Assembly: GCA_009780415.1 (NCBI GenBank) | Contig: WRAC01000017.1 | Span: 1 to 50,776, forward strand | Length of the DNA: 50,776 bases | From: Defluviitaleaceae bacterium | GTDB taxonomy: Bacteria; Bacillota; Clostridia; Lachnospirales; WRAX01 | Reading direction: 5' to 3' | Shown: positions 4,634 to 14,527 of the stretch, piece after piece | Layout of the letters: every line of letters begins with the position of its first letter | How positions within the stretch are numbered: the stretch's first letter is position 1 | Notes under the pieces: generated by a model | What the model saw: only the letters and a program-made list of their open reading frames with translations | Told to the model about the DNA's origin: nothing | Databases searched by the model: none | Program-made: the position numbers and the translations under genes

Positions 4634-4639
4634 ACTACA

Positions 4640-4927
4640 AAAGGTTATGACGGAGAAAAAGATATCTTAACTCAGTATGCCGGCGCGCCGGCAATTAGAG
4701 ATACCGCGGTTGGTGAAAGCGGGTGCTGACGGATATATAAATACACTCCTGAACCGATACCCTGAAAAATTCTGAGTAAGGGTGTACGGATGCCCGCCGT
4801 TATACGGGCAGGGATTGTTTGATCCCGTATGAGGGGCGGCTTGTTAAAAGCCGCAATCAGGGTGGTACCGCGAATATACTTTCGTCCCTGAGCAAGCTGT
4901 TTTTGCTCATGGCCGGAAGTTTTTTTA
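4640..4927 (+). promoter_or_regulatory. T-box riboswitch leader, probable tyrosine specifier (UAC)
   Basis: The conserved T-box sequence AGGGTGGTACCGCG matches the consensus exactly at 4859-4872. Stem I shows a GA/K-turn-like start (ATGACGGAG), an AGAGA box at about 4695, and a GGTGAAA distal-loop-like motif. A specifier loop AUAAAUACA sits immediately 5' of the helix-closing CUCC (4746-4749), which pairs with GGAG (4652-4655). This places UAC followed by A as the specifier. CAGGG of the T-box can pair with CCCUG of the terminator's 5' arm, giving an antiterminator. An intrinsic terminator lies at 4879-4927. Confidence 0.7.
4879..4927 (+). terminator. T-box attenuator terminator (imperfect ~13-bp stem plus U7)
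   Basis: CTTTCGTCCCTGAGC pairs with GCTCATGGCCGGAAG and is followed by TTTTTTT, directly upstream of the RBS AGGAGG. Confidence 0.55.
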
Positions 4928-4953
4928 TGCAATTAAACAAAGGAGGAAGTAAG

Positions 4954-6402
4954 ATGTCAAAAGTAACATTATTTTCCGGTGAAAGCATACCATTGGAAAT
5001 GCACAAGCCGCGCATGGTTCAAAAAGTAAATCTGCTGCCCGTTGAAGAGCGCCTTAACACCATACGCGAGGCCGGGTTCAACACCTTCCTGCTGAGAAGC
5101 CGCGACGTATATCTGGACATGCTTACGGACAGCGGCACAAACGCCATGAGTGAGAACCAATATGCCGCCATGATGCAGGCGGATGACAGCTACGCCGGAT
5201 CCGAGACCTTTTACCGTCTTGAAAAGGTGTTACAGGATATTTTCGGTATGAAGCATTTCCTTCCCGCGCATCAGGGCCGCGCGTGCGAGCATATAATCGC
5301 GCGGGTACTCGTTGCGCCCGGTTCAACCGCTTTGACAAATTTTCATTTTACAACCACCAAGGCGCATATATCCATCGCCGGCGGCGCCCTTGAGGAACTG
5401 GTCAGCGCGGAGGGGCTTGAAATCACCAGCAGTCTGCCGTTTAAGGGAGATATTGATTTAGACATGCTTACGGAAGCCATTAAGCGGCTGGGCAAGGATA
5501 AAATCAGCTTCGTACGGCTTGAAGCGGGGACAAACCTTATCGGCGGTCAGCCCATATCAATGGAAAACATCCGCGAGGTATCCCGCATATGCCGCGCGGA
5601 GGGCATTACGCTGGTTATGGACGCAAGCCTCCTTGCCGATAACCTCTATTTCATCAAAACCCGCGACCCGGAGTTCCGCGATACCGGCATCATCGAAATA
5701 ACCCGCGAAATAGGCCGCCTTTCCGATATAATCTACTTCAGCGGGCGCAAACTGGGCGCGGCGCGCGGCGGCGGCATACTTGTAAACGACGATAAGATGT
5801 TTACCGACATGCGCGAGCTTGTGCCGCTGTACGAGGGTTTCCTCACTTACGGCGGTATGTCGGCGCGCGAAATGGAGGCTATGGCCGTCGGGCTTCTTGA
5901 AACATTGGACATTGATGTAATAAGCCAGACGCCCCTTTTCGTCGAAGCGCTGTGCAATGAATTACAGAGCAAGGGCATCCCTGTTGTGACCCCTCCCGGC
6001 GGCCTGGGCTGCCATGTGGACGCAAAGCAATTCTGCCCCGATATCCCGCAAGCCCAGTACCCCGCGGCTGCATTGTCGGCGGCCTTCTACATCGCGGGCG
6101 GTTTCCGCGGCATGGAACGCGGTACCGCAAGCGAACAGCGGAACGACGACGGTACCGAGCATTTCGCGCAGATGGAACTTGTGCGCCTTGCAATGCCCAA
6201 ACGCGTATTTTCCCTCTCCCAGGTAAAATACACTGCCGACCGCGTGGCCTGGCTGCACAAAAACCGCGGACTCATCGGCGGCTTGGTCTTCGCCGAGGAA
6301 CCAAAGGTGCTGCGCTTCTTCTTCGGGCGTTTGGCTCCGATTGGAGACTGGCCTGAGAAGCTGATGAAGAAGTTTAGGGAGGATTTTGGGGAGAGCTTAT
6401 AA
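4954..6402 (+). CDS. Beta-eliminating lyase family protein, most similar to tyrosine phenol-lyase / tryptophanase
   Basis: Motifs that align almost residue-for-residue with TPL/TnaA: FNTFLLRSRDVYLDMLTDSGTNAMSENQYAAMM, HQGR, KGDIDL, and YEGFLTYGGMSAREMEAMAVGL. The RBS AGGAGG sits 8 nt before ATG 4954. The track's upstream extension to 4819 lies inside the T-box leader and is rejected. Confidence 0.85.
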   Translation: MSKVTLFSGESIPLEMHKPRMVQKVNLLPVEERLNTIREAGFNTFLLRSRDVYLDMLTDSGTNAMSENQYAAMMQADDSYAGSETFYRLEKVLQDIFGMKHFLPAHQGRACEHIIARVLVAPGSTALTNFHFTTTKAHISIAGGALEELVSAEGLEITSSLPFKGDIDLDMLTEAIKRLGKDKISFVRLEAGTNLIGGQPISMENIREVSRICRAEGITLVMDASLLADNLYFIKTRDPEFRDTGIIEITREIGRLSDIIYFSGRKLGAARGGGILVNDDKMFTDMRELVPLYEGFLTYGGMSAREMEAMAVGLLETLDIDVISQTPLFVEALCNELQSKGIPVVTPPGGLGCHVDAKQFCPDIPQAQYPAAALSAAFYIAGGFRGMERGTASEQRNDDGTEHFAQMELVRLAMPKRVFSLSQVKYTADRVAWLHKNRGLIGGLVFAEEPKVLRFFFGRLAPIGDWPEKLMKKFREDFGESL

Positions 6403-6722: not shown

Positions 6723-8099
6723 TTATTTTATCACGGGAAGCGAATCAAAACCAGCCTGTAAATCCTCATCGGTCGGCGCATAGTCCGTTAAGCCTCCGCC
6801 GGTATAACTGCCATACGCCGCCATGTCGAAAAACCCTGTTCCCGAAAGGCCGAACACAATTGTTTTCTTTTCCCCGGTTTCCTTGCATTTAAGGGCTTCA
6901 TCCAGCGCGCATTTTATGGCGTGGGAGGATTCCGGCGCCGGTAGGGTGCCTTCGCAGCGGGCGAATTGTACGGCGGCTTCAAAAGCCTCGTTTTGTACGT
7001 AAGACCGCGCTTCGATATGTCCGTCGTGATAAAGCTTTGACAGTACGGGGCTCATGCCGTGATAGCGCAATCCCCCCGCGTGGCCCGGCGCGGGCATAAA
7101 CCCGCATCCCAGCGTATACATTTTTACAAGCGGGGTGGTTCTGCCGGTATCGCCGAAATCGTAGGCGTATTTGCCTCTGGTGAGGGTTGGGCAGGATGCC
7201 GGTTCAGCCGCGATAAAGCGCATGTTGTTTTTACCCGTTAATTTATCGGCTATAAAGGGCGACATCAGGCCGCCGAGGTTTGAGCCGCCGCCCGCGCAGC
7301 CGATGATGATATCCGGCTTGATGCCGTACATATCGCAAGCCGCCTTTGTTTCAAGGCCTATAACGCTTTGATGCATCAGCACATGGTCAAGGACGCTGCC
7401 AAGCACGTATTTGCAACCGGGTTTTTTTACGGCGGTTTCAATCGCCTCGGATATCGCGCAGCCCAAAGAGCCGCCGGTATCGGGGTTTTTAGCCAGAATC
7501 CCCCGTCCGGACTCCGTTGTGTCCGAAGGCGAAGGGGTTACCTTCGCGCCGTAGGTTTCCATAACCATTTTCCGATAAGGCTTTTGTTCCGCTGAGATTT
7601 TTACCATAAATACCTCAAGGTCAATGCCGTAATAGGCGCATGCCATGGACAAAGCCGTTCCCCACTGCCCCGCGCCTGTTTCGGTTGAAAGATGCGCCAA
7701 GCCCTGTTCCTTGGCGTAAAAAGCCTGGGCGGCGGCCGAATTCAATTTATGCGAACCGGAAGTGTTGTTACCCTCAAATTTGTAATAAATCGCAGCGGGC
7801 GTACCCAGCCTTTGCTCAAGACAGTAGGCGCGCACCAGAGGCGATGGGCGGTACATCCTGTAAAAACTCACCAATTCCTCTGGAATATCGATATATTCGT
7901 CTGTTGTGTTAAGCTCCTGATCAATCAGTTTATCGCAGAAAACGGGCGCAAGATCCTCTTTTGTACAGAGCTTAAGCGTTCCGGGGTGAAGCATTGGCTC
8001 GGGCAAGCATCCCATTTTCGCCATTACCGCGCGCAGATTATGCCAACAGCGCGGCGCGGCGCTCTCCGGCAGATAGATTTTATAAGGTACTCCGCTCAT
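6723..8099 (-). CDS. trpB: TrpB2-type tryptophan synthase beta subunit (stand-alone, PLP-dependent)
   Basis: Motifs YYKFEGNNTSGSHKLNSA and TETGAGQWGTALSMA, with a total of about 458 aa, are typical of the TrpB2 clade. Start ATG 8099 is preceded by GGAG. No trpA is adjacent. Confidence 0.85.
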   Translation of the reverse strand: MSGVPYKIYLPESAAPRCWHNLRAVMAKMGCLPEPMLHPGTLKLCTKEDLAPVFCDKLIDQELNTTDEYIDIPEELVSFYRMYRPSPLVRAYCLEQRLGTPAAIYYKFEGNNTSGSHKLNSAAAQAFYAKEQGLAHLSTETGAGQWGTALSMACAYYGIDLEVFMVKISAEQKPYRKMVMETYGAKVTPSPSDTTESGRGILAKNPDTGGSLGCAISEAIETAVKKPGCKYVLGSVLDHVLMHQSVIGLETKAACDMYGIKPDIIIGCAGGGSNLGGLMSPFIADKLTGKNNMRFIAAEPASCPTLTRGKYAYDFGDTGRTTPLVKMYTLGCGFMPAPGHAGGLRYHGMSPVLSKLYHDGHIEARSYVQNEAFEAAVQFARCEGTLPAPESSHAIKCALDEALKCKETGEKKTIVFGLSGTGFFDMAAYGSYTGGGLTDYAPTDEDLQAGFDSLPVIK

Positions 8100-8233
8100 A
8101 TTCTCTCCAATCCTTTCATTATAAAATAAAGCTAAAGCGAAAAAAGTTTTTTCAACCTTAACATAAGTATTGCGCTGTGTCAATAATTTGTGTTATTATG
8201 TTTTTTAACGTTATTTTTGGAAGGGTGAAATGT

Positions 8234-9574
8234 ATGAAACGACGACGAGTAATTATTATCGGGGCCGCGGGGCGGGATTTCCACAATTTCAACACTGTTT
8301 ACAGGGACAACTCCGCTTACGAAGTAGTTGCATTTACAGCAGCGCAGATACCGGATATAGCGGGCCGACGATACCCGGCGGAGCTGGCGGGCAGCCTGTA
8401 TCCGGCGGGCATACCGATACACGACCAAGCGGAACTGGAGGTCTTGATAAAAGACCTGTCTGCGGACGAATGTGTCTTTTCATACAGCGATATACATTAT
8501 AACGATGTAATGGCTCTTTCCGCGAAGATAAACGCCGCGGGGGCGGACTTTACGCTGCTGGGCCATAAATATACCATGTTGAAAAGCACAAAACCAGTTA
8601 TCGCTATAGGCGCGGTGCGCACGGGCTGCGGCAAGAGCCAAACCGCGCGGCGCGTTGCGGAGATACTTATCGCGAACGGCTTGAAGGTGATTGCCGTGCG
8701 CCATCCCATGCCTTACGGTGATTTGGCGGCGGCGAAGGTGCAGCGTTTCGCGGTTATTGAGGATCTTAAAAAACATAATTGCACCATCGAGGAGATGGAG
8801 GAATACGAGCCGCACATTACGCGCGGAAACGTTATCTACGCGGGTGTGGATTATGAGGCCATACTCCGCGCCGCCGAAAACGACCCGGACGGCTGCGACG
8901 TTATCCTGTGGGACGGCGGCAACAACGACTTCCCGTTCTATAAACCCGACATGATGATCACGGTTGTTGACCCGCACAGGCCCGGGCATGAGCTTAATTA
9001 TTATCCGGGCGAGGTTACGCTGAGATTGTCCGACGTTGTTGTCATTAATAAGATTGACAGCGCCGATTATGACGGCATTCAAGCCGTACGCGCCAATATC
9101 GCAGGCGTGAACCCGGACGCGGTTGTTATTGACGCCGCTTCGCCCTTAACCGTTGAAAACCCGGATATCATTAAGGGCAAACGGGTTTTGGTAATCGAGG
9201 ACGGCCCGACGCTTACCCACGGCGACATGAAGATCGGCGCGGGCGTTGTGGCGGCGAAGCGCTTCGGCGCGGCGGAACTTGCTGACCCAAGGCCGTATGC
9301 CGTGGGTAAGCTTGCCGGTACCTTCGTAAAGTATCCGGAAATCGGCAGGATACTGCCCGCTATGGGATACGGCGAAGAACAGCAATCCGACCTTTCCGCC
9401 ACCATTAACAAAGTTGATTGTGACGCCGTGATCATCGCCACGCCCATCGACCTCGCGCGCGTTATCAAGATTGACAAGCCCTGCACGCGGGTGGAATACA
9501 GCCTGCAGGAAATCGGGCGCCCCGATATGGAGGATGTCCTGACTGATTTCATTAAACGAGTTAAAGGGGAATAA
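8234..9574 (+). CDS. Uncharacterised P-loop NTPase-fold protein, cyclic 2,3-diphosphoglycerate synthetase-like / DUF1611-like
   Basis: 446 aa. The N-terminal part looks Rossmann-like (VIIIGAAGRDFHNF). A central P-loop reads AIGAVRTGCGKSQTA. RBS GGAAGGGTG. The family assignment is from memory of cPGS-like architecture and is tentative. Confidence 0.6.
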   Translation: MKRRRVIIIGAAGRDFHNFNTVYRDNSAYEVVAFTAAQIPDIAGRRYPAELAGSLYPAGIPIHDQAELEVLIKDLSADECVFSYSDIHYNDVMALSAKINAAGADFTLLGHKYTMLKSTKPVIAIGAVRTGCGKSQTARRVAEILIANGLKVIAVRHPMPYGDLAAAKVQRFAVIEDLKKHNCTIEEMEEYEPHITRGNVIYAGVDYEAILRAAENDPDGCDVILWDGGNNDFPFYKPDMMITVVDPHRPGHELNYYPGEVTLRLSDVVVINKIDSADYDGIQAVRANIAGVNPDAVVIDAASPLTVENPDIIKGKRVLVIEDGPTLTHGDMKIGAGVVAAKRFGAAELADPRPYAVGKLAGTFVKYPEIGRILPAMGYGEEQQSDLSATINKVDCDAVIIATPIDLARVIKIDKPCTRVEYSLQEIGRPDMEDVLTDFIKRVKGE

Positions 9575-9576
9575 AT

Positions 9577-10257
9577 ATGGGTTCAATTTCAAACGAAGTA
9601 AAAACGCAGGTACTGACGCAGGCGCTGCCTTACATCCAGCGTTATACCGGTAAGGTTATCGTCGTTAACTATGGCGGGAGCGCGGACGGTAAGCGCGAGA
9701 ACATCGATGCTTTGATGAGTGACCTTGTGCTGCTGGATACGATAAACGTTAAAGTTGTATTGGTTCACGAGGAATGCGGGGATGTAGCCGGAATGCTGGA
9801 GTTGTCCGCCGCTATTAACAAAGCCGGGGGCAAGGCCCTTGCTCTGTGCGGAGCGGATAAAGAAACGGTTGAAGGCGCGCTGGGACTGGGTTACATACCC
9901 GTTGTGGCGGCGATTGATTACGACAACGGCAAGGCCCTTAAAGGCAGCGCGGACAACACGGCGGCACGGATTGCCGGGGAGCTGAAAGCCGAAAACATGA
10001 TCGCCATTACCAATGTGCGCGGTGTCCTTAAAGACCCCTCGGACGACAGCACGCTGATTTCGGAGCTTTCTATCAGCGATGTGCCTTATTTGACCAAGCA
10101 GGGCGTTATCACCGGCGGCATGACTGAAAAAGTCGCTTCCTGTGTCGAAGCTATCCGCAGAGGCGTTAAAAAGGCGTTTATTATCGACGGAAACATAGCC
10201 CATGCCATACTTATTGAATTGTTCTCGGATGAGGGCATCGGCACAATGATTATTTAA
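9577..10257 (+). CDS. Amino-acid kinase family protein, degenerate acetylglutamate kinase (ArgB)-like
   Basis: The N-terminus LPYIQRYTGKVIVVNYGGSA and the C-terminal block ISGGMTEKV...AFIIDGNIAHAILIELFSDEGIGTMI align to ArgB. The HGGGPQ glycine loop is replaced by HEECGD. About 40 aa of the N-acetylglutamate lid region is absent. Total length is 226 aa. Confidence 0.7.
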   Translation: MGSISNEVKTQVLTQALPYIQRYTGKVIVVNYGGSADGKRENIDALMSDLVLLDTINVKVVLVHEECGDVAGMLELSAAINKAGGKALALCGADKETVEGALGLGYIPVVAAIDYDNGKALKGSADNTAARIAGELKAENMIAITNVRGVLKDPSDDSTLISELSISDVPYLTKQGVITGGMTEKVASCVEAIRRGVKKAFIIDGNIAHAILIELFSDEGIGTMII

Positions 10258-10271
10258 GGGAGGCGAAAACG

Positions 10272-11189
10272 ATGAGATTTTATCCAAAGCATTTTTTAAC
10301 CATGCAGGAACTGTCGGGCGAAGAGATTATTGAGCTGCTGAACATCGCCGACCAGTTAAAATACGAAAAAAAGAACGGCATACCCCATCCGCGCCTTGCG
10401 GGTAAGACTTTAGGCATGATATTCCAAAAATCCTCCACAAGGACGCGCATATCCTTTGAGGTGGGCATTTATCAGCTTGGCGGTACGGCTTTATTCCTCA
10501 GCCCAAATGATTTGCAAATCGGGCGCGGCGAGCCGCTGTCCGACACGGGCCGCTGTCTGGCGCGTTATCTGGACGGTATTATGATACGCACTTACGCCCA
10601 TGAGGATGTGGAACGCCTGACGGAATACGGTATACCCGTCGTAAACGGCCTTACGGATTACGCGCACCCCTGCCAGGTTCTGGCGGATTTAATGACCATA
10701 CGCGAGTATAAGAGCACGTTGAAGGGTCTGAAGCTGACGTTTATCGGCGACGGTAACAACATGGCAAATTCGTTGATTACGGGCTGTTTGAACGTTGGGA
10801 TGAGCATAAGCATAGCTTGCCCCAAGGGTTATGAGCCGCATGAAAAGGTGCTTGCCTATGCCGCCGGATTCGGCGATAAGTTTACGCTTACCGACAACAT
10901 TCAGAAGGCATGCGAGGGCTCCGATGTGCTGGTTACGGACGTTTGGGCGTCGATGGGCCATGAAGCCGAGGCCGCTAAACGGCTTGAGGCTTTCAAGGGT
11001 TATCAGATTAACGACAAAACCCTTTTCTACGCCAATGCAGAAGCCATGGTGCTGCACTGCCTACCCGCCCACAGGGGTGAGGAAATTACAGAGGAAGTGC
11101 TGGAACGCCACGCCGGTATGATTTTCGACGAGGCCGAAAACAGGCTTCACGCGCAAAAGGCTATTTTGATTAAACTTATGGAGAAGTAG
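10272..11189 (+). CDS. argF: Ornithine carbamoyltransferase
   Basis: Carbamoyl-phosphate motif STRTR, HPCQ, DVWASMG, HCLPAHRGEE, and a C-terminal FDEAENRLHAQKA. RBS AAGGGAGG. Confidence 0.88.
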   Translation: MRFYPKHFLTMQELSGEEIIELLNIADQLKYEKKNGIPHPRLAGKTLGMIFQKSSTRTRISFEVGIYQLGGTALFLSPNDLQIGRGEPLSDTGRCLARYLDGIMIRTYAHEDVERLTEYGIPVVNGLTDYAHPCQVLADLMTIREYKSTLKGLKLTFIGDGNNMANSLITGCLNVGMSISIACPKGYEPHEKVLAYAAGFGDKFTLTDNIQKACEGSDVLVTDVWASMGHEAEAAKRLEAFKGYQINDKTLFYANAEAMVLHCLPAHRGEEITEEVLERHAGMIFDEAENRLHAQKAILIKLMEK

Positions 11190-11200
11190 GATATTTTACT

Positions 11201-11236
11201 ATCCCGGGCGGATTTCCCGTCCGGGATAATTTTTAT
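11201..11236 (+). terminator. Rho-independent terminator after the OTC gene
   Basis: ATCCCGGGCGG-ATTTC-CCGTCCGGGAT hairpin followed by AATTTTTAT. Confidence 0.55.
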
Positions 11237-11250
11237 GGAGGATTTAACAG

Positions 11251-11901
11251 GTGGCGGTATACTATTTTTTCAGCGGGTTTGATAAGGACAAAGGTTTTTC
11301 GCCCGAAATAGGGCAAAGCCTGCGAGAGTGTATTACAGCGCGAAAATCACTTTTGTTTATCGCATCATCCCCTAGCGCGCATGAAAAAACCGATTTTTAT
11401 ATAAACATTACAATTAATTTGTTTCGTAATATTGGCGTTGAATTTGAAAATTACGATGTGCTTGATGACAGGAAACCAAAAACGGAATACGCGGAACTGC
11501 TTAAAAATGCCTGCGCTGTTTTTTTATGCGGCGGCACAACCTTGCTGCAAATTGATTTTTTGCGGAAGAATGACCTCATACCATTATTAAAGCAATCAGG
11601 CGGCGTAATAATGGGTGTGAGCGCCGGCGCGATAAATATGGCTGTCACGTCATTTTATTCAGCGGACAAGGACCACGGACAAACGCATACATACGAGGGT
11701 ATCGGGCTTGCGGATATATCCGTTGAACCGCATTTTTCGATTGAAAATACCGTCTTGCTCGAAAAAGAATTATTACCTTTTTCAGAAAAAACAGATATTT
11801 ACGCTATGTGCGACGGCAGCGCAATTAAAGTCTGCGATGGCAAAAGGGAATATTTCGGCGATATCTACCTTATCTCAAAAGGTAATGTAAAACAGTTGTG
11901 A
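11251..11901 (+). CDS. Peptidase S51 family (dipeptidase E-like)
   Basis: GTG start with a GGAGGA RBS. Motifs CGGTTLLQ...GVSAGAIN (S51 nucleophile-Ser region). 216 aa. Confidence 0.7.
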   Translation: MAVYYFFSGFDKDKGFSPEIGQSLRECITARKSLLFIASSPSAHEKTDFYINITINLFRNIGVEFENYDVLDDRKPKTEYAELLKNACAVFLCGGTTLLQIDFLRKNDLIPLLKQSGGVIMGVSAGAINMAVTSFYSADKDHGQTHTYEGIGLADISVEPHFSIENTVLLEKELLPFSEKTDIYAMCDGSAIKVCDGKREYFGDIYLISKGNVKQL

Positions 11902-12782
11902 ATATGCCGTCACAATCATCCAAAGAAACGCCGGGAGCATACTTGGTCATCTTCGCCGTATTATGCACCTCCGCGTCTTCTATTTTTATCAGGCTGTCAG
12001 GCATGCCGCCGCTGGCTATCGCGTTTTACCGCATGTTAGCTTCTGCGGCTTTTCTTGCCGTGCCGTTTATCCGTGATAAAAACGGGGTTAAATCCATAAA
12101 GAAACGCGACCTGATTTTATGCGGTTTTTCAGGAATCGCGCTGGCGCTGCATTTCGCCACATGGATAGTCTCGCTCACGTTGACAACCGTGACGGCCTCA
12201 ACGGTTTTGGTGTCGCTAAGCCCTATTTTCGTCGCAATCATAAATATGCTCTTTTTCCGCAAAAAGCCGGGAAAAATCCTGTTTATCTGCCTTGCGCTTG
12301 CCATTTCGGGCACGGTAATCATTTCCGCCGGAAGTTTTGACGGTAACATGGGAAGCTTGACCGGCAATGCCCTTGCTCTCGCCGGGGCCTTTTTTGTGGC
12401 GGTTTACCTGATGATCGGCCAAGATGTGCGCAAACGCGTATCCACCGCCGTTTACGCGTTTTTGGTATATGGCTTCGCCGCCGCGGCCTTGCTTGTGTGC
12501 TGTCTGGCCTTCGCCCAGCCCCTTGCGCCTTACGGCCCCCTCGAGTATGCGAACATCGTGTTGATGGCCCTTGTATGCTCAATCGGCGGGCACACCCTTT
12601 ATAACATGCTGTTAAAGTTTCACGGGGCGGCGCTTATATCCCTCGCATCCCTTGGAGAGCCTGTTTTCGCCAGCATTCTGGCGGTTATTATCCTCTCCGA
12701 GCCGCCCCCCCTAACGGCCATTGCCGGCGGTGTTCTGGTCGTTGCTGGGGTAGCGGCTTTTATTGTTAAAGGAAAATCCTAA
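11898..12782 (+). CDS. EamA/DMT family transporter
   Basis: 10 predicted TM helices in a duplicated EamA-like arrangement. The start overlaps the upstream stop as GTGA. Confidence 0.75.
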   Translation: MNMPSQSSKETPGAYLVIFAVLCTSASSIFIRLSGMPPLAIAFYRMLASAAFLAVPFIRDKNGVKSIKKRDLILCGFSGIALALHFATWIVSLTLTTVTASTVLVSLSPIFVAIINMLFFRKKPGKILFICLALAISGTVIISAGSFDGNMGSLTGNALALAGAFFVAVYLMIGQDVRKRVSTAVYAFLVYGFAAAALLVCCLAFAQPLAPYGPLEYANIVLMALVCSIGGHTLYNMLLKFHGAALISLASLGEPVFASILAVIILSEPPPLTAIAGGVLVVAGVAAFIVKGKS

Positions 12783-13315
12783 ACAATCGTTTTAACCCAA
12801 TACCTACGTGTTCGGATCATTTTCCCGCCAATATTGTTATCCACCGTATCCAAATATTCTCCGCCGTTTTTCTCTATAACGCGCCAGGAACCGATGTTGC
12901 TGTCATTGCACGTAACCAGTGCGGATTCGATTCCCAAGCTCGCCGCCTCACGCAGCAGAAGCGACAACTGCATTGTGCCGTATCCCTTGTTCCACGCCCC
13001 CGCGCGGATTGCGTAGCCTATATGCCCGCCGAAGCACATCAGAGCGGGCGTAAGCTCGTGGCGGATGCTGCCCTCGCCTAAAAATTCCTTTTTATCCTCG
13101 TCCACAAGCCATAGTGTCGTTGCCGGCACATAACCCTCTTTAAGGTTTCTGCCCAGTCTGTTATCTTCAAACCCGCGGAACAAATCAGGCGCCCATTTTT
13201 CATAATCATCCGGATCGTTAAGGCTGTACGACAAAAGCCCCAATTCCTTAAATTCCCGGCACGCTTCCAGATAACTCTGCAAGTAAACAGGTGATGGCGT
13301 AACAAGCTTTAACAT
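12779..13315 (-). CDS. GNAT family N-acetyltransferase
   Basis: Motifs GHIGYAIRAGAWNKGYGT and CNDSNIGSWRVIEKNGGEY match GNAT motifs A and B. An RBS GAGGAGG lies upstream. Confidence 0.75.
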   Translation of the reverse strand: MLKLVTPSPVYLQSYLEACREFKELGLLSYSLNDPDDYEKWAPDLFRGFEDNRLGRNLKEGYVPATTLWLVDEDKKEFLGEGSIRHELTPALMCFGGHIGYAIRAGAWNKGYGTMQLSLLLREAASLGIESALVTCNDSNIGSWRVIEKNGGEYLDTVDNNIGGKMIRTRRYWVKTIV

Positions 13316-13318
13316 ACC

Positions 13319-14527
13319 CTACCGCCGCCTCCTCGTCATTTCCATCAGCCCAAGGCGTGTCATGCCTTCAACAACAGTAATAGCGGGATCCTTTCTTAGT
13401 TCGTCCTTCAATTCCCGGGTAAGGGCCGCGATGTTTTCCGGCTCCTTCATCCCAATAAAATCAATGATAATAATGCCGCCCAGATTACGCAGCCGCAATT
13501 GTTTCGCTGTTTCACGCGCGGCCTCGATGTTTATTTTCAATGCCATATCCTCAAGGCTTTTCCGGCCCGAATACTGGCCTGAGTTTACGTCTATGACCAC
13601 ACATGCCTCTGTTCTATCTATTATAATACGGCCGCCGGAGGGCAGATATACCATCCTGTGCCTGGTAGTTTCATATGGTTTGCTTAGATTATATGTAGTA
13701 AATGCCTGGCCCTGAACCAGCGTTACCTTTATGCCCCTTGCCGCGTAAGCCTCCGTAAGCAGTGCGTGTTCGTCGGCGTTGTTAATAATTATTTCCCGTA
13801 CATTGGTACCGGCTCCGGCCATCAATTCCGCGGCAAGCATAACACACGCGCTGGCGTGGGGTTTATATGCCGGTACAGGGAGCCGGTCTTTGTCAAAGCC
13901 GTCTTTAACCGCTTCCGTTATCAGCGCCTCTGTTTCGGCAACCGCGCGTGCCAGTTGATTCAGCTCGGCATCAAGAAAGCTTGAGGCCGCATTCGCAGCG
14001 TCTGTCCTAATTATTATATTTTTATCAGGCAAAGCGATTTTTTCAAGTAGTTCCCCGGTTATCCTCAAAAGCCTTTCGCGCTCTGTTTCGGATGTAATCT
14101 TCTTTGATATACTTATCCTTCCAAGTTCAGTATCTATATTTTCTGGTTGTTGTATATGTTCTATAACAAAAAATCTACCGGGCCATGTCAGCTTTGTGGT
14201 TACGTATGCCCCCTTTTCGCGGCACGCGTCCCTTGTGACCTGTACCGCCACCGGATGCCCGGCTTTTACGGTTCCAACCGCCGCCGTATCCTTGTTGTCA
14301 TTAAGGTTCAGGAACGCGTTGCGTTCCTGCCCGATATCCACAAAAGCGAAGCCGTTTTTATTAACGGCTTCCACAATGCCGACATATATATTACCCGACG
14401 CGGACTCCTTACCCTGATTGGTATCCATAAATTCAATAGGTTCGCCGTTTTCCGCAAGCGCCGCCTTTGATCCGTTTTCATCTTTATCAATGATAATACG
14501 CCATTCAGCGCTAAGCTTAACCGGCAT
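13319..14527 (-). CDS. rng: Ribonuclease G/E family endoribonuclease (catalytic domain)
   Basis: Contains RLRNLGGIIIIDFIGM and an S1-like N-terminus. The ATG at 14527 is the preferred start. The track's TTG at 14569 has no RBS. Confidence 0.8.
   Translation of the reverse strand: MPVKLSAEWRIIIDKDENGSKAALAENGEPIEFMDTNQGKESASGNIYVGIVEAVNKNGFAFVDIGQERNAFLNLNDNKDTAAVGTVKAGHPVAVQVTRDACREKGAYVTTKLTWPGRFFVIEHIQQPENIDTELGRISISKKITSETERERLLRITGELLEKIALPDKNIIIRTDAANAASSFLDAELNQLARAVAETEALITEAVKDGFDKDRLPVPAYKPHASACVMLAAELMAGAGTNVREIIINNADEHALLTEAYAARGIKVTLVQGQAFTTYNLSKPYETTRHRMVYLPSGGRIIIDRTEACVVIDVNSGQYSGRKSLEDMALKINIEAARETAKQLRLRNLGGIIIIDFIGMKEPENIAALTRELKDELRKDPAITVVEGMTRLGLMEMTRRRR

Follow-up and report, generated by a model that had tools for sequence, protein, structure and literature searches.

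Candidate reduced arginine operon with a predicted kinase-dead ArgB homolog in a Defluviitaleaceae bacterium

The closest described relative of the three-gene unit examined here, which lies on a contig of a Defluviitaleaceae bacterium and comprises arcE, a degenerate argB (argB*), and argF, is the arginine synthetase pathway of Thermococcus kodakarensis. Its ArcE enzyme (TK2200), characterized by Michimori, Yokooji, and Atomi (PNAS 2024), interconverts citrulline, NH3, and ATP with arginine, ADP, and Pi (PMC11032458). TK2200 favors ADP; its activity with GDP is 8.4% of that with ADP. It acts catabolically, the equilibrium lying toward arginine breakdown; its discoverers also raise ArcE as a replacement for the final, ArgG/ArgH, step of biosynthesis in several bacteria (PMC11032458). 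Homologs are weakly similar to cyclic 2,3-diphosphoglycerate (cDPG) synthase, have an LpxK-like nucleotide pocket, are labeled hypothetical proteins or putative GTPases, and are sometimes encoded beside arcB or arcC (PMC11032458). The gene is widespread in Thermococcales, Desulfurococcales (Hyperthermus, Pyrodictium, and others), and Thermoproteales, and occurs in many bacteria (Bacillus, Virgibacillus, Clostridium, Desulfovibrio, Synechocystis, Gimesia, and Petrimonas) and a few eukaryotes (PMC11032458). A 2026 follow-up reported that ArcE and ArcB together provide carbamoyl phosphate for pyrimidines (PMC13260591).

A second point of comparison is the amino-acid-kinase (AAK) fold. An arginine-site motif, E-(L/I)-(F/M)-(T/S)-x-x-G-x-G-T, has been defined for arginine-sensitive N-acetylglutamate kinase (NAGK, ArgB) and N-acetylglutamate synthase (NAGS, ArgA) (PMC4490483, section 7). 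In N. gonorrhoeae ArgA (2R8V/3D2P), a kinase-inactive AAK domain with this motif serves as an arginine-binding, oligomer-forming regulatory module fused to the acetyltransferase that it regulates.

The stretch that we analyzed (hereafter the window) comprises 50,776 nucleotides of contig WRAC01000017.1 (assembly GCA_009780415.1), half of a 100.7-kb contig (ENA ERZ27257304 k141_660376), the proteins of which are listed at NCBI under a Defluviitaleaceae metagenome-assembled genome (MAG). The unit is encoded on its forward strand and consists of arcE (8234–9574, 446 aa, a P-loop NTPase of the arginine synthetase family), argB* (9577–10257, 226 aa, a truncated and catalytically degenerate NAGK homolog), and argF (10272–11189, 305 aa, an anabolic-type ornithine carbamoyltransferase, OTC), with 2 nt between arcE and argB* and 14 nt between argB* and argF. 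On balance, we lean toward reading it as a reduced arginine operon, with ArgB* as a noncatalytic, arginine-sensing partner of OTC.

The truncated ArgB homolog

Short ArgBs are rare. Six short clusters (205–228 aa, 56–100% identity to the window ArgB*) were present among 7668 matches in 5.8 billion clustered proteins, and all other matches were normal ArgBs, nearly all of 283–294 aa and 40–45% identical to ArgB*. A metagenome scan with the short-ArgB alignment returned, among the matches listed, only canonical ArgBs of ~283 aa and no further short members. The six short proteins share two deletions at identical positions. The first removes ~34 residues with the N-acetylglutamate-binding GLRxTD...VLxGKxNK segment, and the second removes ~28 residues that form the β-hairpin lid; a third deletion is found in three of the six. 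Overall, ArgB* is ~60 residues shorter than the hexameric NAGKs.

The elements of phosphoryl transfer are also gone. The catalytic lysine position, which we take to be equivalent to K8 of E. coli NAGK, is occupied by Asn31 (9667–9669, forward strand); this residue is Asn in every short protein and Lys in every aligned canonical ArgB. As the earlier note on this DNA had recognized, the glycine-rich loop is missing: H64-E-E-C67 (9766–9777, forward strand) stands in the place of the phosphate-binding HGGG, and across the short ArgBs HGGGP is replaced by HEECG, HGECT, HRQTE, or QGA, introducing acidic or Cys residues. YNINAD is cut down to AD in all six, GGMIPK has become GGMx(E/D)K in five, and GGNAM is degraded. 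D126 and K185 are retained. Throughout, we presumed that the aligned ArgB positions correspond to E. coli K8, G44/G45, R66, N158, D162, and K217, with D126 equated with D162 and K185 with K217. ArgB* scored 92.1 bits against the argB model TIGR00761, below the cutoff of 151.3, and aligned only with model positions 124–231.

One alternative is that ArgB* is a minimal AAK-fold enzyme that acts on a new small substrate, for example a carbamate kinase completing an ArcE–carbamate kinase–OTC pathway. Carbamate kinase is itself a member of this fold family, the canonical pathway consists of ArcE, ArcB, and ArcC, and the loss of the lid and the N-acetylglutamate site, with D126 and K185 kept, would suit a smaller substrate. 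However, to our knowledge all known AAK enzymes keep the catalytic Lys, the GGG loop, and the GGNAM element, each of which is substituted or degraded here. Because these catalytic elements are lost and ArgB* reaches only 28 bits against the arcC model TIGR00746 (cutoff 358), carbamate-kinase-like activity is unlikely, and we regard a small-substrate kinase of any kind as very improbable.

In contrast to the catalytic elements, the portions responsible for arginine binding and hexamer formation in NAGK and NAGS are kept. The N-terminal helix (ALPYIQxY) persists in ArgB*, as does the greater part of the C-lobe, and the arginine-site signature E214-LFSDEGIG-T223 (10216–10245, forward strand) is intact, matching the published motif. 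The signature is invariant in all six short proteins except at its second residue (L or M) and, apart from that residue, falls within the 73 alignment columns that are invariant in the group. An AF2 model of ArgB* is compact (pLDDT 89.7). Hexameric arginine-sensitive NAGKs (T. maritima 2BTY, P. aeruginosa 2BUF, and S. elongatus 2JJ4) are the best matches in both sequence and structure (TM ~0.89), followed by the AAK domain of N. gonorrhoeae NAGS (0.80) and the arginine-insensitive E. coli NAGK (0.71–0.75). Whereas the ArgA domain keeps a full-size N-lobe and is fused to the enzyme that it regulates, ArgB* is truncated and stands alone, apart from its presumed target, OTC. ArgB* is thus a predicted pseudoenzyme derived from a hexameric arginine-inhibited NAGK, with the N-acetylglutamate site and the phosphoryl-transfer residues lost.

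ArgB* is probably functional, yet not as a kinase. Intact argB* ORFs of 216–228 aa occur in all five lineages with DNA: the window, L086, L088, L089, and L093 (L-numbers denote the numbered loci of relatives that we compared with the window unit). Across them, nonsynonymous differences (pN) amount to 0.19–0.32 per site and synonymous differences (pS) to 0.68–0.80, with synonymous sites saturated. This clear contrast demonstrates purifying selection on argB*, as judged from the codon comparison, and together with the five intact ORFs it rules out a pseudogene. A decaying argB could conceivably be held open by chance or by a polar or translational-coupling constraint, and the missing catalytic residues, the third deletion in half of the proteins, and the tiny size of the clade would fit such a functionless remnant. 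So would the pattern of divergence: the N-lobe remnant is the least conserved and fastest-evolving part of ArgB*, with a mean pairwise identity of 52% in the short clade and 69% in canonical ArgBs, compared with 68% and 58% for the N-terminal helix and 67% and 73% for the C-lobe. The low pN, the invariant columns with their arginine-site loop, the confident model, and a Shine–Dalgarno sequence of its own stand against this explanation, which we consider improbable.

The 446-residue protein and the ArcE family

The earlier note had treated the 446-residue protein as a cPGS/DUF1611-like P-loop protein of unknown function. It is very probably a member of the ArcE arginine synthetase family, whose function has been known since 2024 (PMC11032458). 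The protein is 45% identical to its Hyperthermus butylicus homolog over 439 residues, that is, over its full length (E = 8e-139), and 44–46% identical to proteins from Pyrodictium, Ignisphaera, and Thermoproteota. An exhaustive search of representatives returned a Thermoproteota protein (P0266) at 46% identity, to which the proteins of Hyperthermus butylicus, Pyrodictium occultum, and Ignisphaera are most closely related. We base the assignment on this full-length homology to proteins of genera that were named as arcE carriers, and from it we infer arginine synthetase activity for the window protein. Other homologs come from Virgibacillus, Bacillus, Desulfovibrio, Planctomycetota, and a eukaryote (Creolimax), as PMC11032458 would predict, and some are encoded near arcB or arcC. 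The traits described for ArcE in that work were seen here as well: annotation as a putative GTPase, weak similarity to cDPG synthetase (cDPGS), and a P-loop NTPase fold with an LpxK-like nucleotide pocket. Cluster look-ups of the family contained no Thermococcus sequence.

The family is large (>8000 proteins retrieved) and strikingly uniform. Identity to the window ArcE is 78–81% for proteins from Treponema, Desulfovibrio, Oscillospiraceae, Planctomycetaceae, Synergistaceae, and the archaeon Methanimicrococcus (proteins P0002–P0120), and 68–81% for homologs in 80 species-level genomes. The values of 78–81% across phyla mean either that the protein is conserved to an unusual degree or that gut anaerobes have exchanged its gene extensively by horizontal transfer.

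Many homologs carry the NCBI name cyclic 2,3-diphosphoglycerate synthase, which raises the alternative that the 446-residue protein is a cDPGS or a G3E-type metallochaperone GTPase and that its arginine context is coincidental. A marginal cobW match, the sole Pfam hit, would agree with a G3E protein, as would an NKxD motif and conserved Cys and His residues, and most homolog loci have unrelated neighbors. Against solved structures, however, only residues 222–325 resemble cDPGS (E = 6.6e-7 for 9sxb and 0.01 for 8ork/8oru), which rules out full-length similarity to that enzyme; the match to the ArcE clade, by comparison, spans the whole protein and is far stronger. The cDPGS of M. fervidus (8ORK/8ORU) lacks NKxD and differs in reaction and taxa, cDPG being known only from hyperthermophilic methanogens (PMC10690619). 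The DUF1611 proteins (TM0796 2G0T, Ava_3511 2OBN, and DgcN 7XRJ) likewise differ in reaction and taxa, and their sequence similarity to the window ArcE is marginal or absent. The protein matched neither the DUF1611 model (PF07755) in Pfam nor any NCBIfam model. The cPGS/DUF1611-like label is thus fair at the level of the fold and fails as a statement of family membership. In several phyla, moreover, homologs are repeatedly and independently linked with genes for OTC, carbamate kinase, carAB, pyrBI, or ornithine aminotransferase or with arg operons. Taken together, these data leave the cDPGS or G3E alternative barely credible, and the NCBI name is probably a systematic misannotation. A metallochaperone or carbamoyl-phosphate-forming role, which we had first suspected from the neighboring genes, was replaced by the ArcE literature. 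In other literature, Sll0572 has been called a potential GTPase, and a literature search on COG2403 gave no match.

The window ArcE has a Walker A/P-loop, G126-AVRTGCGKSQ-T137 (8609–8644, forward strand), that is invariant in 40 homologs in the pattern GxxRTGCGKSQT; the core GCGKS is found in 70 of 80 homologs. A G4-type guanine-specificity motif, NKID (N272–D275; 9047–9058, forward strand), is invariant in the homolog alignment and aligns with the G4 motif NKID of HypB (2hf8). NKxD is found in 77 of the 80 bacterial-type homologs, whereas this position reads TKxS in the Desulfurococcales homologs and VITLAD in cDPGS. Given this difference, and the preference of TK2200 for ADP, the bacterial ArcE clade may use GDP/GTP. 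The most strictly invariant stretches of the family, HPMPYGDL..., CTIEEMEEYEPH, and FPFYKPD...DPHRPGHE (residues 159–198 and 234–258), are those with the lowest AF2 confidence (pLDDT below 50); they may be loops that become ordered by substrate or at an interface.

Gene contexts and direction of the unit

The neighborhoods of arcE were surveyed by crude gene calls in 79 species-level loci, and key neighbors were verified with NCBIfam. One recurrent arrangement is arcE–pyrB, with pyrB at +1 in 20 of the 79 loci and pyrI at +2 in 15, mostly in genomes labeled Bacteroidota/Bacteroidales (L019, L023, L034, L035, L038, L039, L047, L048, L053, L061–L063, L065, L067, L069, L070, L074, L077, L082, and others). 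This synteny fits the supply of carbamoyl phosphate for pyrimidines by ArcE and ArcB (PMC13260591). Unlike that bare ArcE–ArcB picture, two loci also have carAB, since carA–carB follows arcE in L020 and L031, with pyrB next in L031. L025 encodes a catabolic-type OTC and carbamate kinase beside arcE. In a Candidatus Neomarinimicrobiota MAG, arcE–arcC–ndk form one operon (L050, 8001–10731); arcE–arcC recurs in MAGs of the same group (L051 and L080), with an ndk-cluster gene three genes downstream in L080. The ndk gene in L050 would fit GDP/GTP use and hints at GTP as the product nucleotide. Ornithine aminotransferase is encoded beside arcE in L072 and L018. In L009 (8001–17063), arcE lies directly upstream of argC-x-argJ-argB-x-argD-argF, with no argG or argH within the cluster, and in L011 (1508–6540), on a contig binned as Methanomassiliicoccaceae, it accompanies argC–argJ–argB. 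Many other loci have unrelated neighbors. Recurrent association with genes of carbamoyl phosphate, ornithine, and arginine metabolism, seen in several phyla, was what indicated that the family works in arginine metabolism.

The OTC of the window is a canonical ArgF of the anabolic type. It scored 420 bits against NF001986 (cutoff 306) and 404 bits against TIGR00658 (cutoff 281), and in addition to the STRTR and HCLP motifs that the earlier note had reported, it contains HPCQ and DVWASMG (STRTR, HPCQ, DVWASMG, and HCLP at residues 55, 132, 223, and 262). The catabolic-type model NF003286 gave 263 bits, below its cutoff of 515. The ArgF encoded in the argCJBDF operon of L009 aligns with it at 66% identity and with no internal gaps. 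A comparison aimed at a signature specific to the ArgB*-linked OTCs turned up, against the L009 ArgF, no more than a short xYYP extension at the N terminus, too small a difference for interpretation.

OTC is encoded directly 3' of argB* in all five lineages, whereas the gene upstream varies. It is arcE in the window, the C-terminal 83 residues of an arcE homolog 170 nt away in L089, argH in L088, and a flavodoxin-like gene in L086; in L093, no gene lies within 270 nt. The conserved unit is therefore ArgB*–ArgF, and the full triad is found in two lineages. The triad thus recurs in L089 and is not unique to this genome. The ArcE fragment of L089 is 67% identical to the window protein; this value is no sign of horizontal replacement, because homologs from other phyla are 66–76% identical over the same C-terminal stretch.

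In the reduced arginine operon that we favor, ArgF would interconvert ornithine and carbamoyl phosphate with citrulline, and ArcE would interconvert citrulline, NH3, and NTP with arginine, NDP, and Pi in one step. The two enzymes would thus form a two-step route between ornithine and arginine that uses neither ArgG/ArgH nor arginine deiminase. The layout of L009, arcE with argCJBDF and no argG/H, is that expected if ArcE replaces ArgG/ArgH, and the window unit resembles such an operon from which argC, argJ, and argD have been lost and in which argB has eroded. ArgB* would sense arginine and regulate or scaffold OTC, and possibly also ArcE, so that feedback formerly exerted on the now absent NAGK reaction would act on the first reaction still present. 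We offer the role of ArgB* as an arginine sensor acting on OTC as a tentative proposal, since its retained parts bind arginine and build the hexamer in NAGK and NAGS and since OTC is its constant partner.

A catabolic module is a less likely but serious alternative. In this case, ArcE would turn arginine, NDP, and Pi into citrulline, NH3, and NTP, and OTC would phosphorolyze citrulline to ornithine and carbamoyl phosphate. The latter would feed pyrimidine synthesis or a carbamate kinase encoded elsewhere, which would yield another ATP. ArgB* would sense arginine to turn the module on or be a passenger. The roles demonstrated for ArcE and ArcB in T. kodakarensis, including the supply of pyrimidine carbamoyl phosphate (PMC11032458, PMC13260591), agree with such a module, as do the homologs with a catabolic OTC and arcC (L025), with arcC–ndk (L050), or with pyrB–pyrI (20 loci), and the peptidase S51 and EamA exporter/importer-type genes immediately downstream of the window unit. 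In contrast, the window OTC belongs to the ArgF subfamily, falls below the catabolic-model cutoff, and lacks the C-terminal insertion of the L025 ArcB. The contexts of L088, where ArgB*–ArgF follows argH, and of L009, where arcE precedes argCJBDF, are biosynthetic. Unlike the ArcE–ArcB–ArcC pathway, the window unit lacks arcC and has a predicted kinase-dead ArgB between arcE and argF. Pfam calls for the whole window gave no further arginine gene, carbamate kinase, or arginine deiminase, which bears out the earlier description of the unit as lacking the latter two and as neither a standard arg operon nor an arginine deiminase operon. Considering the ArgF-type OTC, the lack of arcC in the window, and the biosynthetic contexts of L009 and L088, we judge the anabolic direction, ornithine to arginine, to be somewhat likelier than the catabolic one in what is nearly an even choice. 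The suggestion in the earlier note of a citrulline/carbamoyl-phosphate module for energy harvest or regulation had the right subject and pointed the right way.

Several points weigh against a reduced operon with a sensory ArgB*. The nominal dN/dS of argB* is 0.09–0.15, compared with 0.015–0.09 for the neighboring OTC, values that saturation of dS makes only approximate. Five of the six short ArgBs also show erosion of the 'TD' motif of the nucleotide site, which makes nucleotide binding by ArgB* doubtful. The adjacency of ArgB* and OTC may be no more than a legacy of an argB...argF operon, and binding of arginine, OTC, or ArcE by ArgB* is a hypothesis. Canonical argB, argG/H, or arcC may be encoded elsewhere in the genome, of which the window covers 50.8 kb. 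The window ArcE is linked to the assayed TK2200 through homologs that are known by genus in PMC11032458; the assayed enzyme is archaeal, and bacterial proteins join the family by homology. Finally, with the catabolic T. kodakarensis enzyme as precedent (PMC11032458), the unit could run from arginine to ornithine and carbamoyl phosphate.

How ArgB* might act on OTC can be framed by known carbamoyltransferase control. In aspartate carbamoyltransferase (ATCase), effector control resides in PyrI regulatory dimers, and in yeast epiarginase control arginase binds and inhibits OTC. Both provide precedents for a second or noncatalytic protein that makes a carbamoyltransferase trimer effector-sensitive. 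The kinase-inactive AAK domain of ArgA is a further precedent for the role proposed for ArgB*. ArgB* is homologous to neither PyrI nor arginase, and an ArgB*–OTC complex is our proposal. By analogy with ATCase, a NAGK-type hexamer, as a trimer of dimers, would have the symmetry to bridge two OTC trimers. Such an assembly of ArgB* hexamer and OTC trimers would be an ATCase-like holoenzyme with arginine feedback, operating in lineages whose arginine route shrank to ArgF and ArcE. GDP/GTP dependence of the bacterial ArcE would in turn explain the arcE–arcC–ndk operons. The complete picture, a free-standing kinase-dead hexamer that binds arginine and docks OTC trimers combined with a GDP/GTP-dependent ArcE, is speculative and, as a whole, rather unlikely.

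Signals, neighboring genes, and significance

The earlier note described three co-directional genes with a shared terminator; the ORFs and a strong hairpin agree with this. The intrinsic terminator (11200–11238, forward strand) begins past the OTC stop codon with a hairpin at 11200–11228 (12-bp stem with 8 G–C pairs and a 5-nt loop), followed by a T-run, ATTTTTATGG. Like argB*, argF is preceded by its own Shine–Dalgarno sequence. A promoter-like site, TTAACA-18-AATAAT (8158–8187, forward strand), matches the consensus at 10 of 12 positions, a consensus match only, and lies in the 134-nt gap between arcE and a divergent TrpB-like gene. No ARG box with ≤3 mismatches was found in this gap, and a scan with the ARG-box consensus gave 11 matches where 13 were expected, none of them upstream of the operon. 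The closest homologs come from MAGs with isolate names that, in our reading, suggest the termite gut.

The divergent gene (6723–8099, reverse strand) encodes a TrpB-like PLP enzyme (TrpB2, 654 bits against NF009057), a homolog of which, at 55% identity, is encoded near arcE in L054. A tryptophanase-like gene adjoins arcE in L018. Within the window, a T-box leader (4638–4892, forward strand; 113.8 bits against a gathering score of 93) lies upstream of a tryptophanase/tyrosine phenol-lyase family gene (4951–6402; 571 bits against NF009709). The specifier in the cmscan alignment, read by eye, is AAA-UAC-A and would be a Tyr codon, which would suggest that tyrosine starvation induces this β-eliminating lyase, possibly to work in the direction of synthesis.

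Past the terminator, a peptidase S51 gene (11251–11901, forward strand), with weak PepE/cyanophycinase similarity far below cutoffs, overlaps by 4 nt an EamA-family transporter gene (11898–12782, forward strand). Because an EamA gene (69.5% identity) also follows OTC in L089, the transporter may be functionally part of the arginine unit. In two Oscillospiraceae MAGs (L007, 2787–7348; L008, about 9330–14343), arcE is followed, as read by eye, by a lactate-permease-like membrane protein and then by PEP carboxylase (L007) or pyruvate carboxylase (L008).

The 446-residue protein has largely turned out to be a well-characterized arginine enzyme through its ArcE family, although the assayed member is archaeal, and since the family has been known since 2024 the novelty of the whole triad is lower. 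What remains new is a predicted kinase-dead, truncated ArgB that is under selection and tied to OTC, a bacterial ArcE clade that bears NKxD, and new arcE contexts. Thousands of bacterial and archaeal proteins named cyclic 2,3-diphosphoglycerate synthase or GTPase at NCBI are probably arginine synthetases, and reconstructions of arginine, pyrimidine, and energy metabolism in gut and sediment anaerobes would need correction. The arcE–argCJBDF cluster without argG/H, arcE–pyrBI in Bacteroidota, arcE–arcC–ndk, and the NKxD motif are leads on the role and nucleotide of bacterial ArcE. ArgB* would be a clean natural case of an enzyme cut down to an allosteric module and kept as a separate protein and, if it does control OTC, would represent a new mode of feedback in arginine biosynthesis.

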